Positions 5,082 to 61,381 of a stretch of 64,000 bases of DNA are shown here, in pieces. Every line of letters begins with the position of its first letter. Within the stretch, counting starts at the first letter, position 1. The stretch is from positions 109,988,001 to 110,052,000 of the forward strand of contig OX597816.1 in NCBI GenBank assembly GCA_951406725.2, read 5' to 3'. The notes beneath the pieces were generated by a model. That model searched no databases. It was given only the letters and a program-made list of their open reading frames with translations, and was not told the origin of the DNA. Position numbers and translations under genes: made by a program. The stretch is from Octopus vulgaris (Eukaryota).

Positions 5082-5117
5082 CAGTACCGGTTTCACTCAT
5101 TGAGACTTTTTCAACTC
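5082..5117 (-). ncRNA. Hammerhead ribozyme-like motif, U3-A8 core variant
   Basis: Minus strand gag TTGAAAA agtctc aat gagt GAAAC CG GTA ctg; weak stem I. Confidence 0.4.
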
Positions 5118-5470: not shown

Positions 5471-6151
5471 ATATTGTTTGGAGTCCGTGCGCTTATAGTA
5501 TATATCTGTTTCTATTACGTTGTTAGATTTCTTAATGAGGGTGTCGAGGAAGGAAGCTTGTTGATGGCTATATTCCATCGTGAAATGAATGTTCACGTCA
5601 AGTCCATTTATAAGTGCTTGGAATTCTTTAAGTCGCTCCATACTTTCATGTCAAAAATGAAATAATCATCTAGGTATCTCTAGGTATTTTCTATGTAGCG
5701 GGCGAATGGGCTGCCGTATTATTTTTCTAGAACCTTATAATAAAGACTGATTTTTAGATATCCCATGACTAGGTTAGCAAAGGAGGGGGCCATTCTTGTA
5801 CCCATCGCGGTCTCCGATTTTTGTCGATAGAAATTGTCTCAGTAGTTTTCTCCAAGATAAATTTTAGCTCTTCTATCTCAAATTCTTTTTTGGTGCGATG
5901 TGAGAGTTCGTTGGCGTAATGCTCTAACCAGAATTGAATATTGCCCCTATTCCTAGGGTGTGGGGTATATGGGAATAGAAGTTGGCTACATCGAAGGATA
6001 CTAGTTGTTGTTCATTGTTTTAGGAAGGTGATTGAGTTTATGCGGATCGTCCTTTAAGTAGCTTTTGACATGCTTGAGGAATGGTTTTAAGAGGGCATCT
6101 AAAAATTATTATATATATAAAATATGTATGTACGTATACATATATATATAC

Positions 6152-17305: not shown

Positions 17306-17367
17306 GATCTAACTAACTATCTTTCTATCTAAATATATGTATGTATGAGTATATATATATAAATATG

Positions 17368-17445
<78 letters not shown>
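17237..17445. repeat. (CTAT)n followed by long (TA)n
   Basis: Visible runs. Confidence 0.95.
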
Positions 17446-17449
<4 letters not shown>

Positions 17450-17544
17450 AGAGGAATTTCGATTATCCCCACGTGTGGTCTGTAATGTATATAAGAAATT
17501 AAAAAAGGAAAATACGCACACTTAAATGGTTTTAATAATTTTTA

Positions 17545-17822
17545 ATATATCGATCGGTTTCGCTATCGCTATTCATGATATTATGTTTTATCTGTTTGAA
17601 TATATATTTTTGAATGTATGGGTTTGAATATATAACAGTTATCTCCCTTACACACAACAATCACAATAATAACAACCAATTACCTCCCTTTATTTGTCTA
17701 CTTGTGAAGTCATTCGTCGTGGATTTATTCACACAAATGGTCCAAATTTCTTCTTAAGAAAAATTATATATTCAAACAAATACAACATAATATCATGAAT
17801 AGCGAAACCGGTCGATATATTA
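17545..17822. mobile_element. Inverted-repeat element (PLE pseudo-LTR-like) with an HHR motif in each arm
   Basis: 17545-17610 is the reverse complement of 17762-17822; the centre has TATCTCCCTTACAC...TACCTCCC.TTAT, shared with the PLE 3'UTR at 47237-47280. Confidence 0.7.
17547..17581 (-). ncRNA. Hammerhead ribozyme-like motif, A3-U8 core variant
   Basis: atatc ATGAATA gc gata gc GAAAC CG ATC gatat; 5-bp stem I, G-C closed stem II. Confidence 0.55.
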
Positions 17823-17839
17823 TGTATAATATTTATGTG

Positions 17840-17895
<56 letters not shown>

Positions 17896-18040
17896 AAATA
17901 TACATATGAATGATAATGTATATATATATATATATAATTGAATTTTAATATTATTGGTGAATTGAAATTTTTGCTACCAAGGTATCGGTTAAACTTTTGA
18001 TTAATCTGCTACAAGATTATTCATCTTTCTATTTCACATA

Positions 18041-18087
<47 letters not shown>

Positions 18088-18114
18088 GTATACATATATA
18101 CATATATTTACATA

Positions 18115-18872
18115 CAACATCTCATCAATAAGTATCCGGACTGTTGTCATAGTAACGAAGCTAAAGCATGCAGAGCAAAGCTGCTTGGAACGGATGTGTG
18201 TAGAATGTGATCATCGCATTGACCACGACAATGAAAGTTGTCATGACGGTACTTGCTCAGAGTTCTATACAAATTTGCAGAAAGTGTATGGAGAAGAGTT
18301 TATAAGCTGCACACAAATGTACGAGGGATTCACATTTTTCCAATATGGCCGAATAAATGTCGATATTGATGAACTGAAAAAAACATCGCAGATGTGCCTG
18401 CAACTGTGGAAGGAAATGGTTGAATCACCATCCGTGAGTTATCAGATGTGCAGGCTAGTTACAGTTCGGTTCAGTCTATTATCACTGAAGAGATGGGTAT
18501 GATACGCGTTACTTCCAAGTTTGTGCCAAAATTGCTTTCAGCTAACCAAAGAGACACTCGGTTTTAGCTGCACAGAACGATGAAAACCTTTTGAAAATTT
18601 ACGTAGGCCACTGAACAGGTATCACCAAGCTTTTGACAAAATTTAATGCCAATTCTTTCTTCAACTACCTCTGTCATGGTCAATGCAACGATCACCCGCT
18701 AGACACCTTCCTTCCAAACACTGCTGTAAACAGCAGAAGTGAGGTAGAGCATTAAAACTTAGTGCGAACGCACAGTGAAGTTCAGGTTCAATTTGTGCCA
18801 AGCAAATTTAGTGTGCGTGCTTTTAGGACCGTTACTATGGCAACAGTCCGGATACTTACTGATCAGACTACG
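18115..18872 (+). mobile_element. Internally deleted mariner with TIRs and TA TSD
   Basis: TIR ATCA(A/G)TAAGTATCCGGACTGTTG(T/C)CATAGTAACG at both ends; flanking TA at 18113-14 and 18873-74; HTH remnant LQKVYGEEFISCTQMYEGF..FQYGR and KFVPKLLS. Confidence 0.85.
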
Positions 18873-21595: not shown

Positions 21596-21960
21596 TGTAC
21601 CATTGGAAAGTCAACACAATTTAGATTAAATAAAGAAACATACTTCATTGAAAAATATAAGCCAAAACCTAACCATTTCTAACATTTTTAAATAAGGAAA
21701 CTCACCTCATTGAAAAAAACATATAAACGAAATACTAACCACTTGTAACATTCTATTACTTCTAAACCAAATCATGTCAAATTAATAAAACCTAGTCATT
21801 CCCAACATTTTTATTATCTCCATTATACCGGAAAAATATCTGATTATCTTACCCTGTCTGGAACTCCATATTTCACAACATGGCAAAGACATGACACAAT
21901 ATAGGTAAAGGAATTTGAGAAATTTTAAAAGAAAATACGAAACCGGTTATTTCTCCCAAA
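21596..21960 (+). mobile_element. PLE GIY-YIG C-terminus and 3'UTR
   Basis: STQFRLNKETYFIEKYKPKPNH is nearly identical to the C-terminus of the PLE at 47085-47975. Confidence 0.75.
21910..21953 (+). ncRNA. Hammerhead ribozyme-like motif, U3-A8 core variant
   Basis: ggaat TTGAGAA atttt aaaag aaaat ac GAAAC CG GTT atttc, at the end of a PLE 3'UTR. Confidence 0.5.
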
Positions 21961-24723: not shown

Positions 24724-27700
24724 TCTTTGTCAGGTCTCCGCTTGGAGCTACTGGTAACATGTAACCCAGTACAACCTATTACATGGTCGGGTCGCTGGCG
24801 ATTAAACTGGCAACCCCACCAAGATTTCTTGGTGAGGAGGGTGAGTTGGACACCCAGCAGGACTAAAAACAAAACCTGTCAAAGGGCAGAGGAACTCTCT
24901 CATGAGTCAATGGCCATCCAAAAACCTACATAAATCCGGAGTGGAGCCCATAAGGCGGTTGGATTGCGCCATGCGTGCCACCTTCTGGCAGCTCCTGCAT
25001 CCTGGTCTACCCCCAGCCGTCTTGATTTTGTCTTGCCACTGGATCCGGCGCACCAGGACGAGAGAGTGAGGCTGATCCTGCGCAAGTCACCTTCACTATA
25101 ATCCAAGTCACGCGCACGTCATGACATCATGACACCAACATCACAAAGTCCTGTGGCGATGGGGAAACGGCTGCAGTCGTGAACCCACACACAGGCGGCT
25201 CAGGACATGTGGTCGCCCCTCACTGAACTGAGGCAGCAGTGGAGTCCAGCAGCCTCCTGAGTGACCGAGCAGCCCTCTTCAGGATCGCTCTGCTCGCCTG
25301 CGCAGCATGAGGACGGGGCTAGAAAAGGTTGCCCTAAACATAGCCTGCCTCACCTCACCCTGGTCAGTAAATCGTGGCTGGCGGGGATACTTTCTAAGCG
25401 GTCGAAACAAAGAAAGAAAACGAACAAAGGTGCTCACTTTCGCAACTTGGAACGTGAGAACTCTGCTTGACAACACCAAAGCGGACAGACAAGAGAGACG
25501 AACTGCCCTGGTGGCCAGAGAACTGAGCCGATACAATGTCGATATCGCAGCACTGAGCGAGACCCGCCTTGCGGACAAAGGCCAGCTGACAGAGACAGGC
25601 GGCGGCTACACTTTCTTTTGGATTGGTCGCAGCAGCGAAGAGCGTCGTGAGGCTGGTGTTGGTTTTGCCATCAAGTCAGTACACGTGCGGAAACTGGAAA
25701 GCTCCCCCGAGGGTATCAACGATCGGCTAATGAAGATGCAGCTTCCCACTTGGAAACAAGACTATTGCGACCATCATCAGCGCTTACGCCCCCACCATGA
25801 CCAACCCTGAAGAAGTTAAGGACAGGTTCTATGAGGAACTCGACTCCCTCATCACGTCAGCCCAGCCTGGGAAGCTCATCCTCCTTGGGGACTTTAACGC
25901 CCGTATCGGGACTGACCACCAAGCCTGGCATCGCGTACTGGGAAAGCACGGAAAGTGCAACATCAACGGGCAGCTCCTCCTCCGGGCGTGCGCCTCTCAT
26001 GATCTTACCATCGCCAACACCTTGTTCCGTCTGCCAACACGCAACAAGACATCATAGATACATCCACGCTCCAAACACTGGCATCTGATAGATTACGTCA
26101 TCGTCAAGGCGAAAGACAGGCAGGACGTGAGACTGGTCAAAGCCATGTGTGGAGCTGATTCCTGGACGGACCATCGCCTCATCATCTCCAGGATGGATTT
26201 CTACATCTAACCTAAGAGAAGACCACAGAAAGTGACGAGGAAGCTTAACATCACGAAATTAAAGAACCAGCTGACTGCACAAGATCTCCAGTCACGTATG
26301 GACAGCAAGCTGTTGGACGTTCGGAATGACCAGTCCAGCATCGATGAGCAGTAGGAATCATTCAGGGACACGGTTCATTCCTGCTCAGCTCGGATGGAAC
26401 CTCACTCCTGACTAACAAGAGGCTGATCCTGGAGAGATGGGCGGAGCATTTCAACATCGTGCTCAACCGACCAGCCGAGATCAACGAGGAAGCCATCGCA
26501 CGACTCCCCCAGGTGCCGACAAACCACGACCTGGCTGTTCCCCCCGCAGAGCCATTAAAAAATGTCCACCGGCAAAGCTCCAGGCTCTGACGCCATCCCT
26601 GCAGAGGTGTTCAAGTCGGACGGCTCCACCATGATGAGTCAGCTCACCAGCCTGTTCCAGTCGATGTGGGACAAGGAACAACTCCCTCAAGATTTCCGGG
26701 ACGCAACAATCGTCCACATTTATAAGCGGAAAGGAGATCGGCAGTCCTGCGAGAACTACCGAGGAATCTCCCTCTTGTCCATAGCAGGCAAGATCCTGGC
26801 CCGAGTCCTGCTTGACCGCCTTCTGGAACACTTGGAGCAAGGCCTTCTCCCCGAGAGCCAGTGTGGCTTCCGCGCGGGTCGGGGGACCACTGACATGATA
26901 TTCGCCGCCCGCCAGCTCCAGGAGAAATGCATGGAGCAGCATCTTGACCTCTGCATGACCTTTGTTGACCTCACCAAGGCTTTCGATACAGTCAGTCGGG
27001 AGGGACTTTGGAAGGTCATGGGAAAATTTGGTTGCCACAGCAAATTTATTGCAATTGTCTGCAAGTTCCACGACGGAATGACAGCCAGACTCCTTGAAGA
27101 CGGCAACTCATCTGAAGTCTTCCAGGTGACCAACGGAGTCAGGCAGGGCTGTGTCCTGACCCCAACACTGTTTAGCATCATGTTCTCGGCAATGCTGTCC
27201 GACGCCTTCAGGGACTGCAAGTCCGGTATCGACATCAAGTACAGGACGGACGGGAAAATTTTCAACTCCAGAAGATTGCAGGCCGTCACAAAGGTAAGGG
27301 AGACAGTAGTCAGAGACTTTCTCTTTGCTGACGACTGCGCCCTTAACGCAATCGATGAGCAGGAGATGCAGCTCGGGATGGACAGGTTCTCATCAGCCTG
27401 TGACAGCTTCGGTCTCACCATCAGTGCCAAGAAAACCGAAGTGATGTTTCAGCCAGCCCCCGGCAAACAATACCATGAGCGTCAGATAAAGGTGAACGGA
27501 CGGATCCTACGGGCGGTGGAAAACTTCACCTAATTGGGCAGCACTCTCTCCTGCAATGCCAACATAGATGCTGAAATCATCAACAGAATCTCCAAGGGAA
27601 GCAGCGCGTTTGGGAGACTGCGAAAGAAAGTCTGGGAGCGGAGAGGAGTCAGCCTCAACACCAAGCTGAAAGTCTACCGGGCAGTCGTGCTTACCACCCT

Positions 27701-28322
27701 ACTATACGGCTGGGAGACGTAGACTGCTTACCGAAGGCACGAGCGCCAGATAAACTACTTACACCTCAGGTGTCTTCGGAACCTCCTTCACATCCGCTGA
27801 CAGGACAAAGTCCCAGACACGGAAGTTCTGAAGCAGGCAGATCTCCCTAGCACCATCACGATCATGCGCAAGGCCCAGCTGAGATGGGCAGGCCACGTCT
27901 CCCGCATGTCCGACACTCGCATCCCAAAACAGCTCTTCTACGGTAAACTCAGCCAGGGCAAACGTAAGGTCGGAGGGCAGAAGAAGCGCTTCAAGGACAG
28001 TCTCAAAGTCTCTCTCAAAGACTTCTCCATCGGCACAGAGACATGGGAGACACTTGCTATCGACCGCTCATCCTGGCGCAGCGCAATCACCACAGGAGCA
28101 AAGACAGCCGAGGAGAGACGGATTCAGTCAGCAGAACAGAAACGCCAGATGCGGAAAGCCAGAGCCACCTGCACCAATAGCACAGCCCCTACCCACTTCT
28201 GCCCCACTTGTGGGAGGGGCTTTCGTACCCGGATCGGCCTCACCAGCCACCTCCGGTCTCATAGCAGCAATTCCACCGAATGATGTCAATGGTCATCTTC
28301 GAACCCGAAGGACGAACATTAT
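24724..28322 (+). mobile_element. RTE-clade (BovB-like) LINE, both ends present, 11-bp TSD
   Basis: TSD TAATTTTCTAT at 24713-24723 and 28323-28333; ~600-bp 5'UTR; APE, RT and C2H2 finger; short ATT tail; GC-rich relative to flanks. Confidence 0.95.
25307..28283 (+). pseudogene. Disrupted RTE ORF: APE endonuclease, reverse transcriptase and C-terminal zinc finger
   Basis: ATWNVRTL, ALSETR, LGDFNAR, KAPGSD, YRGISLLS, FVDLTKAFD, GVRQGC, LFADD, QLRWAGHV, CPTCGRGF..GLTSHLRSH; frameshifts, in-frame stops (e.g. 26055, 27531, 27720) and an apparent deletion near 26380. Confidence 0.95.
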
Positions 28323-47084: not shown

Positions 47085-47975
47085 TATTAGAAAATTAAAA
47101 AAAAATTTTTTTTTCTCTTATAATGACATAATTTAAAAGAAAGACCGGTTTCGCGTGTAGCTTTCCAAATTTCTTGCGACGTTATGTTTATGTTGAATAG
47201 AGTCATCGTTATGTTTATATTCAGGAGAGTTCAACATAAGGGGAGGTAGTGAGTGATTTCTTCCGGTGTAAGGGAGATAATCGCTTAAAAATTTTTTCCT
47301 TTCCCTTGGTGTGAATTTCTCTGTATCAGTATGTTCGGATGGTTGAGTCTGGGCTTGTACTTTTCAATGAAGAATGTTTCCTTGTTTAGTCTAATTTGTG
47401 TTGATGATCCGAAAGCACATTGGTAAAATGGAAAGATTAAAAATCGTGGTAGAAGTTGCTTTGCGCATTTCTCAATGTGCTCACTAAAAGGTATCATTCT
47501 ATATTCTGGGAATGCAACCTTTGTCGATGCAGTGTGCATCTACGTCTGAGTGATAGTCCCGTGGAACCCACGTAGTCTTGGTGGCAGCCTGAGCATTTTA
47601 TGACGTAAATTATGTTTTCAGAGGCACAAGTAAAGTTAGATTTGATCTTGAATTTCTGTCCCTCTTTAAAGAGGCATTCTGATCCTTCTAGCAGGTTAGG
47701 ACATGTTGCACAGTTCTATCTACCACATTTTTTTACTTTTGCATCCGTAATTTCAGAAGACAATTTTGCCTTTGTGAGAATCTTTTTAAGTGATTTAGGC
47801 TGTTTGTAGCTTTTAGTGATTTGGTGTATGTTTAAAATTTCCTTTAATTTGGGGTCTTTATGAAGTATTGGTAAATTCTGGGTGATGATGGTGAAGGCTT
47901 CTTTGTTTCTGGGGTTGTATGTAGATATGTAAGGTAGTATTTTCGGGGAAGGTGTGTTGTTGTGTTGAACTTTTC
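47085..47975 (-). mobile_element. Penelope-like element 3' part: linker, GIY-YIG endonuclease and 3'UTR
   Basis: LPYISTYNPRN..KQPKSLKKILT..KCGR*NCATC..NFTCASENIIYVIKCSGCHQDYVGST..IRLNKETFFIEKYKPRLN. Confidence 0.92.
47137..47175 (-). ncRNA. Hammerhead ribozyme-like motif, U3-A8 (G6) core variant
   Basis: aagaaa t TTGGAAA gc tacac gc GAAAC CG GTC tttctt; 6-bp stem I; ~110 bp past the GIY-YIG stop. Confidence 0.55.
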
Positions 47976-48327
47976 TTATATATATATATAATTTATAAAC
48001 ATAGGCAAAAGAAAAAATATTTCTATGCTAATATGCTGCGAATAGATTTTAAATCATCAATTTTCACTTTTATAATATACATTCACTATAGATACACGTC
48101 ATGCTGAAATTGAGGAAGACAAGCAAACAGAATTTAAAAAAAAATTGTTATTTCTATATTTAATCAATTTCGGGATTAATCCTACGGATTTTTCCCTCTT
48201 CAGTAGAAAATGCGATATGAATTAAATGAAATACTTAAAAGCACCCTTGGAAAAAAGTAGAAGCAAGAGTCATGTATACACAAAAGTACTCCAGTTATAT
48301 CTAAGTGTAAAATCCTTTAGCAAGCCT

Positions 48328-60738: not shown

Positions 60739-61381
60739 ATCTTGACCAGCTGCCAACAAAGCACGCGGAGTTCTGTTTTTGATTCGACGGTCATTCGGAA
60801 TGCTCACATCAGCCATATTCCTACCGCTCTATGTCACGCTGGTGAGGCCCATATTGGAGTACGGGATTCAAGCCTCTTCTCCTTATCTCCTCAAAGACAT
60901 ACATCATCTCGAAAGAGTCCAGAAGCTGGCTACCCGTATGGTTCTTGGTCTCAAGCATTTGTCAAATGAAGAAAGGCTGAAGACGCTCGACCTTTTCTCT
61001 CTTGAAAAACGACGACGCCGTGGTGATCTCATTCCCGCTCACAACATCATAAGTGGAAAGTGTAACCTCTCAAAAGAGCTGTTCTTCACTCCTGCTCCAG
61101 AGCGTGGACTGCGGGGTTACTCCGAAAAGCTCTATCTACGACGATTTCATCTCAATCGAAGGAGAGGGGCTTTCTCCGTTCGGGTTGCGGATCCGTGGAA
61201 TAAGCTGCTAGACGAGATAGTGAAGATGCCGACGACCGCTCGGTTCAAAGTCTCTCTTGACCGGAAATGGCCTGCACTCTTTGTATGACCATCCTCCCTG
61301 TACATAACTCTCTGTCCCCCTACATGGCCTTGCTTTTGCTTTTTGAGCTAATTAAAAATTAAATAAAAAAAATTAAATTAA
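60739..61381 (+). mobile_element. 5'-truncated CR1-clade LINE with (AAATT)n tail and 9-bp TSD
   Basis: LYVTLVRPILEY..PYLLKDIHHLERVQKLATRMV..LFSLEKRRRRGDLI..FSVRVADPWNKL; TSD ATTGATTAA at 60730-60738 and 61382-61390. Confidence 0.92.

Follow-up and report, generated by a model that had tools for sequence, protein, structure and literature searches.

Inverted hammerhead motifs with an A3-U8 core pair in a decayed Penelope-like element

Introduction

In hammerhead ribozymes, the pair formed by core positions 3 and 8 positions the general acid. G8 has been named a catalytic nucleotide, and when all double mutants of a type III hammerhead were scanned, the G-C swap was the only one to rescue, with low activity for the other double mutants of that region (PMC9901934). 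Covariation of the 3-8 pair in nature was described for U3-A8 hammerheads (Perreault et al. 2011, PMC3088659), and this is what the motifs analysed here have in common with them; the swap in those hammerheads is pyrimidine-purine, whereas here the purine-pyrimidine pairs A-U and G-C are found in whole families.

Among the closest described systems are the minimal hammerheads of metazoan Penelope-like elements (PLEs; Cervera and De la Pena 2014, PMC4209133), which cut poorly even with C3-G8. The motifs analysed here resemble them in type-I order, a short stem I, the pair G10.1-C11.1, a palindromic stem III for which dimerisation is predicted to be necessary, a location in the pseudo-LTR (pLTR) and copies that occur either singly or as opposite-strand pairs at distances of 100-700 bp; in addition, U3-A8 appears as a covariant in Schistosoma. 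They differ in the core, which is A3-U8 here and G3-C8 in a sister lineage, while none of the 56 motifs in Fig. S3 of that paper begins with AUGA or GUGA. Furthermore, stem II has 2 bp here as opposed to ∼3-8 there, and no extra nucleotide is present between positions 9 and 10.1, as is also the case in a few of the published motifs.

The anole PLE PAc (Frangieh et al. 2024, PMC11167929) is likewise an element with reverse transcriptase (RT) and GIY-YIG domains and a hammerhead in its pLTR, and it shares with the present family two copy ends that define an optional tail, AT-rich targets and copies made from uncut RNA. Protein must be present for its motif to cut, the 3-8 pair is needed as well, and insertion does not require the motif. 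In contrast to the family described here, PAc has C3-G8, belongs to the Penelope/Poseidon clade and has a start codon inside the motif; its optional tail measures 30-40 nt, compared with ∼55 nt here, and G3-C8, an engineered rescue in PAc, is natural here (PMC11167929). The role of hammerheads in PLEs is regarded as an open question (PMC8557442, PMC11167929). Previous papers have documented minimal hammerheads in PLE pLTRs as well as opposite-strand pairs, the palindromic stem III and U3-A8 in nature.

Lunse, Weinberg and Breaker reportedly described, in 2017, small PLE-tied hammerheads with a reduced stem III that cut as dimers. Small PLE hammerheads with a reduced stem III that cleave as dimers are also the subject of a review (PMC6765202). 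A full-text literature search did not find natural A3-U8 or G3-C8, where notation varies and the 2017 work may already list such variants, and the excerpts of PMC6765202, PMC3884650, PMC10085705, PMC7229834, PMC13725137, PMC11014351 and PMC6466107 did not settle this point. Non-LTR retrozymes (PMC7229834; bioRxiv 10.64898/2026.07.22.740005) are comparable in their type-I order, palindromic stem III and occurrence in animal repeats. However, they form short tandem repeats, whereas the family found here is the end of a protein-coding PLE; instead of short head-to-tail units without a frame, its copies are dispersed and continue into the PLE frame. In the genome that holds this family, a C3-G8 type-I hammerhead was observed in retrozyme-like tandem units of 359-360 nt with inverted junctions (L149-L168, L172-L174 and L176; e.g. 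G000:C1:20002278-20004542).

Results

Two inverted arms within a (TA)n tract

The locus lies in a 64-kb window, the whole stretch of DNA that was analysed, from a microsatellite-rich animal genome of 2.8 Gb. A sequence-only reading had described paired inverted hammerhead motifs at 17545..17822. Both motifs proved to read exactly as described, with an A at position 16.2 in the left one and a stem II shortened by 6 nt in the right one, and the complete type-I hammerhead that had been reconstructed by combining them corresponds to the majority sequence of the family presented below. A search with the 25-nt motif at up to 3 mismatches gave one match in the window and none in 100 shuffles.

The stump to which the motifs belong extends beyond the coordinates first given (Table 1). 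Its two arms, whose 5′ ends face each other inside (TA)n, form an inverted repeat of each other (85.5% identity over 69 nt, E 2e-16). The minus arm was 89% identical to the 5′ pLTR of the partial-tandem copy L124 over 169 columns, while the direct arm stopped 8-9 nt past C17, and the filler between the arms did not align to the family copies L124 and L101. Other inverted pairs of the family are alike in carrying the tail on one arm and none on the other. Since a one-sided tail on inverted truncated copies matches the pattern described for PLEs (PMC8557442; PMC11167929), the two arms can be attributed to one insertion. The locus is almost certainly an inverted, 5′-truncated and decayed insertion stump of an endonuclease-bearing PLE in (TA)n.

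Table 1. Positions of the parts of the stump and of other features in the window
Feature	Position	Strand	Basis or remark
Left (TA)n tract, likely insertion target	17333..17444	none	TRF; (TA)n also at the ends of other family copies
Inverted pseudo-LTR arm with 34 nt of sequence upstream of the core, the hammerhead, the pLTR downstream of it and most of the optional tail	17447..17610	-	
Left hammerhead: 5-bp stem I, A3-U8, 2-bp stem II with GAUA loop, GAAA, broken stem III palindrome, C17	17547..17581	-	
Left hammerhead, stem I 5′ strand	17581-17577	-	
Left hammerhead, A3	17576	-	
Left hammerhead, U8	17571	-	
Left hammerhead, position 16.2	17554	-	A, not G
Left hammerhead, C17	17552	-	
Left hammerhead, stem I 3′ strand	17551-17547	-	
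Inter-arm junction filler, part of a local 14-nt duplication	17611..17633	none	TRF period 14 at 17594-17634
Direct arm: 3′ untranslated element end (∼160 nt upstream of the core), hammerhead motif	17634..17822	+	Alignment to long copy L101 and to L124
Right hammerhead: A3-U8 core, intact ACCGGU palindrome, 6 nt of stem II deleted	17790..17818	+	Alignments to L124 and L101
Right hammerhead, A3	17795	+	
Right hammerhead, U8	17800	+	
Right hammerhead, C17	17813	+	
Right (TA)-rich tract	17823..17936	none	TRF 17815-17936
Degenerate U3-A8-family hammerhead	5085-5114	-	
Degenerate U3-A8-family hammerhead	21915-21948	+	
Degenerate U3-A8-family hammerhead	about 47143-47170	-	
Broken PLE coding fragment (RT, linker, GIY-YIG)	47309-47979	-	Leads into the motif near 47150
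Broken PLE coding fragment (RT, linker, GIY-YIG)	5471-6105	-	
Broken PLE coding fragment (RT, linker, GIY-YIG)	21596-21676	+	
LINE with endonuclease and RT frames, presumably RTE-like	25265-28283	+	
Presumed second LINE fragment	60746-61288	+	
Fragment taken to be possibly mariner-like	18005-18600	+	

Although the paired inverted motifs are real, the first reading had overlooked both their identity as part of a PLE stump and the inability of this locus to form an active dimer. The stem III self-duplex of the left arm amounted to -1.3 kcal/mol, compared with -8.3 kcal/mol for an intact family copy, and in the predicted fold the left arm with its broken palindrome did not form a double hammerhead. 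The locus as a whole was predicted to fold as one long hairpin on either strand, and the RT and GIY-YIG frame that is present in family copies is absent from the stump. Because both arms are damaged and lie on opposite strands, and a read-through RNA would form one long hairpin, the copy in the window itself is expected to lack activity, as an ordinary dead stump.

In Rfam searches at E up to 10, no hammerhead was found at the locus, nor on an intact family copy, which supports the earlier claim that CUGANGA-type searches would miss the motif. Likewise, no hammerhead was among the matches listed (150 of 232) when Rfam was run over the 64-kb window.

The PLE family carrying the motif

A DNA similarity search with the locus gave at least 83 matches, from 40 of 1462 candidates scored. 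Several of the copies extended more than 1.6 kb upstream with 90-93% mutual identity, and their upstream translations contained an RT (YLDD), a C-x4-C-x2-C linker and a GIY-YIG domain. Pfam detected GIY-YIG in the family frame above the cut-off (E 3e-6) and RVT_1 just under its own (E 8e-7). Family copies have, as endonuclease-bearing PLEs do, one frame with an RT, plus GIY-YIG at its C-terminal end, and the linker between the two conforms to the CX2-5CxxC motif of Neptune/Nematis (PMC8557442). The motif is located ∼230-280 nt 3′ of this frame in the longer copies and, in tandem copies, ∼170 nt before the start of the next frame. In the partial tandems L124/L251, L146 and L256, a pLTR stretch leads into the beginning of the next frame, an organisation that corresponds to a pseudo-LTR; the inverted 5′-truncated copy, the optional tail and the microsatellite targets are further PLE features of the family. 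Among 16 + 6 regions, none contained a full-length tandem copy of the window's family that was intact. In the tandem copy L110 of the U3-A8 family, which has an internal deletion, the motifs are 3468 nt apart.

The ends of the copies were distributed in two groups. Of the 50 copies whose stem I is intact, 23 ended 95-102 nt and another 23 ended 146-154 nt from position 3, so that the ends of 46/50 cluster ∼70 and ∼125 nt beyond C17; three copies ended earlier and one was the alignment reference. All 18 distinct A3-U8 motifs that were found without a downstream requirement also continue past C17. Since family copies run through C17, the inserted templates were uncut there. Near-full-length copies starting at the cut site gave no signal, as 30 loci began at scattered positions from -67 to beyond +200; one of these frame-start loci had its start at +26, with the sequence of its family going on further upstream. 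Two near-full-length copies, L125 and L122, were observed to begin 2 and 15 nt before position 3, beside an inversion; two such cases are not enough for assigning a transcription start.

In both the A3-U8 and the U3-A8 families, the optional tail carries a CACGTG palindrome (L124:1950-2010 (-) and L110:2540-2600), and a second one is located just before the start codon. The palindrome is possibly a stem-loop where reverse transcription starts.

Covariation of positions 3 and 8

The genome was searched with exact patterns in which the letters at positions 3 and 8 were free where stated, and controls across these searches gave 0-9 matches. As U4-A6, GAAA and stem III were built into the patterns, a set of copies chosen instead by DNA similarity was considered as well. 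All 29 of these copies carried A3-U8, in agreement with the AUGAAUA core that had been read in place of CUGANGA.

With positions 3 and 8 free, the scaffold matched 2125 times in the genome, while the reversed-pattern control did not match. U3-A8 was found in 1178 of these matches and A3-U8 in 801, so that a Watson-Crick 3-8 pair was present in 1979/2125. The remainder consisted of 37 matches with A3 and another partner, 27 with C3 or G3 (C3-G8 and G3-C8 each being 0) and, by subtraction, 82 with U3 and another partner, including a U3-G8 wobble subfamily. When C or G was required at both positions, 233 matches were obtained (control, 7), and the first 100 of them were mostly the C3-G8 tandem retrozyme-like repeat. 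The G3-C8 families gave 109 matches (control, 2), and G3-C8 motifs were also found behind PLE endonuclease frames. Freeing positions 3 and 8 in the G3-C8 scaffold resulted in 214 matches, of which 109 were A3-U8. The first 30 of these loci comprised 16 A-U, 10 G-C and one each of U-A, G-U, G-G and A-C, which amounts to 27/30 Watson-Crick pairs; Fisher's test, restricted to the 28 rows in which position 3 is A/G and position 8 is U/C, gave p 9e-6, but the copies do not count as independent. Within this sister lineage, the A-U and G-C subfamilies shared ∼87% pLTR identity when both positions were masked (43/47 rows).

The first reading had taken the double change shared by the two arms for a compensated 3-8 pair. 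As both arms stem from one insertion, their agreement at positions 3 and 8 is expected and is no evidence of compensation, but the pair is indeed kept across other families. Independent variation of the two positions, the outcome opposed to that claim, was looked for across families; the positions change together, and the claim survived. Four other runs, on organisms A, E, F and G, covered the motif, and the rows listed contained no alternative letter at position 3 or 8; as an absent row proves nothing, no weight is given to this.

Several related groups were noted alongside. An old related family, with too little coding sequence for use as a root (L257, L070 and L044:2298 (-)), has G8 with C, A or U at position 3 and is possibly a C3-G8 relative of the PLE radiation. 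Thirteen of the listed G3-C8 matches lie on one contig (G000:C17:44.6-80.0 Mb) and nearly all share one stem II variant, which suggests local duplication rather than transposition. Large U3-A8 subfamilies (L001, L009, L014, L017, L019, L110, L113 and L114) lack one nucleotide at the 17/1.1 junction, so that stem I has to shift by one base in order to pair; in sister subfamilies position 17 is C, A or U and the stem has its full 7 bp. The idea that position 17 avoids complementarity to position 3, taken from G3-C8 families with A17, was abandoned in view of 4130 matches with A/U at positions 3 and 8 and a position 17 other than C. The first 100 of these were mostly U3-A8 with A17, and about half of them belonged to a very abundant U3-A8 family with A17 and a longer stem II (L177, L187-L189, L194 and L196).

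Number of pair swaps

An unrooted FastTree phylogeny of the endonuclease region, for which 68 of 84 rows had enough cover, comprised three lineages, namely the A3-U8 group of the window, a U3-A8 lineage and a G3-C8 lineage with A3-U8 inside. A second tree was based on 26 of the 68 rows, with paired states only and up to three best-covered rows per group. At least three paired changes were needed on this tree, and a single A3-U8 clade was rejected with p-AU 1.3e-7, the A-U group for this test having been named after the first tree had been seen. Two A-U origins and one origin followed by a reversal are indistinguishable on an unrooted tree. Three events are a small number, yet the pair was kept in every large family sampled.

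Stems, fixed positions and dimers

Pairing was evaluated in 17 hand-picked intact representatives, four of 21 rows having been dropped (the right arm, two misaligned retrozyme rows and one long-loop row). In these representatives 95.3% of the cells paired, compared with 21-40% in slid controls, a figure that overstates independence because the representatives were hand-picked as intact and related. All five stem I pairs showed changes on both sides, in the type-I order with a closing stem I, and 2 of 5 covariation-tool measures did not exceed shuffles. Between families, compensatory changes occur in the 3-8 pair and in stems I and II, while U4, G5, A6, A9, G10.1, C11.1, GAAA and ACCGGU are fixed. 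Among the 17 representatives, G12, A9, U4, G5, A6 and U16.1 were invariant, and position 17 was C, A or U but never G.

Apart from the C3 and G8 of the CUGANGA core, which the family lacks, its motif displays the features of a minimal hammerhead (U4 G5 A6, A9, G12 A13 A14, A15.1-U16.1, H17 and G10.1-C11.1). Stem II is only 2 bp long, A9 is directly followed by G10.1, and the ACCGGU palindrome of stem III is present in the family but not in the left arm of the window. The minimum-energy fold of the self-dimer was an exact double hammerhead in 4/6 natural copies, and the two that deviated from it were both G3-C8.

Discussion

We consider it probable that the locus is the remnant of a PLE whose pLTR carried an A3-U8 minimal type-I hammerhead, and that its parents likely formed a double hammerhead whose cleavage was likely weak and assisted by protein. 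Two motifs would pair via the palindromic ACCGGU to give a predicted shared stem III of 6 bp. By analogy with the anole PLE, cleavage of the parent elements after C17 would be weak and protein-assisted, would depend on the element's protein and on the 3-8 pair, and would not be required for insertion. The tolerance for any Watson-Crick pair at 3-8 would follow from such weak, assisted activity. Keeping the 3-8 pair may not by itself keep catalysis. Against catalysis count the type III scan with its single rescuing swap (PMC9901934), the poor cutting of minimal PLE hammerheads even with C3-G8 (PMC4209133), the continuation of family copies through the cut site, a stem II of 2 bp and the 2/6 dimer folds that deviate.

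Conceivably, the fold is kept as a non-catalytic structure, such as a site serving the element's protein for binding or dimerisation; the 3-8 pair would then matter for shape alone, and the A3-U8 families do not cut. This alternative, which we regard as unlikely though deserving of weight, would fit the making of copies from RNA uncut at C17 as well as the anole data, where insertion by catalytic mutants is normal and none of the RNA reads ends at the site (PMC11167929); it is, however, the same anole motif that cuts once protein is added and that needs its 3-8 pair to do so (PMC11167929). The type III scan, in which A-U gave no rescue (PMC9901934), points toward a non-catalytic role, while the existence of natural U3-A8 hammerheads (PMC3088659) points away from it. 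Moreover, a change from C-G or U-A to A-U or G-C would take two transversions via an unpaired state, which suggests weak selection on rate, but a purely structural role does not sit easily with the invariance of G12, A9, U4, G5, A6 and U16.1 and with a position 17 that is never G in the 17 representatives.

Two other explanations appear far less probable. In one of them, A3 was selected since A3-U4-G5 reads AUG, either as a start codon or as an upstream AUG that cleavage can remove, and U8 followed as compensation. The frame of the anole element does begin inside its hammerhead (PMC11167929), and the core AUG of L124 opens a frame of its own, but this frame stops after 18 codons, whereas the long frame starts at GAAAATG, at a distance from the core of ∼170 nt in A3-U8 copies and ∼230 nt in a U3-A8 copy. 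As main start codon, the core AUG is refuted by this early stop and the downstream start. A short intron following the core-AUG frame was also rejected, as the intron-like stretch ends with ACAA and not with AG in most copies. Since U3 and G3 families thrive without a core AUG, selection for AUG seems very unlikely. It is even harder to credit that the motif arose by chance or is a decayed canonical hammerhead whose 3-8 pairing reflects few founders. Copy counts do reflect few parent elements rather than independent events, and only three changes are needed on the tree; yet a Watson-Crick 3-8 pair characterises all large families sampled (1979/2125 and 27/30), single mismatches are scattered at the level expected from decay (37/838 A3 copies), stem I has been rewritten with compensation and the controls yielded 0-9 matches.

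Beyond the weak, protein-assisted A3-U8 hammerhead of the parent elements that we favour, a wider reading is offered more tentatively, as one that is possible but rather doubtful. One PLE radiation would have left C3-G8 and moved among U-A, A-U (at least twice) and G-C, giving families of 100 to thousands of copies each that would still be self-cleaving with the assistance of protein. If this is true, the natural A3-U8 and G3-C8 hammerhead families would be unreported and genome-wide hammerhead counts would be far too low. What is added to the published record is a view across the genome in which swaps among three non-canonical pairs have recurred. The near-identical A-U and G-C sister subfamilies, so similar in the pLTR yet different at both position 3 and position 8, represent a natural experiment and would, if the radiation reading holds, offer a ready-made test of the purpose of the PLE hammerhead. 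Should the variants cut, purine-pyrimidine pairs would work in nature and CUGANGA searches would miss thousands of motifs per genome; should they not cut, the fold would be kept for something other than catalysis.
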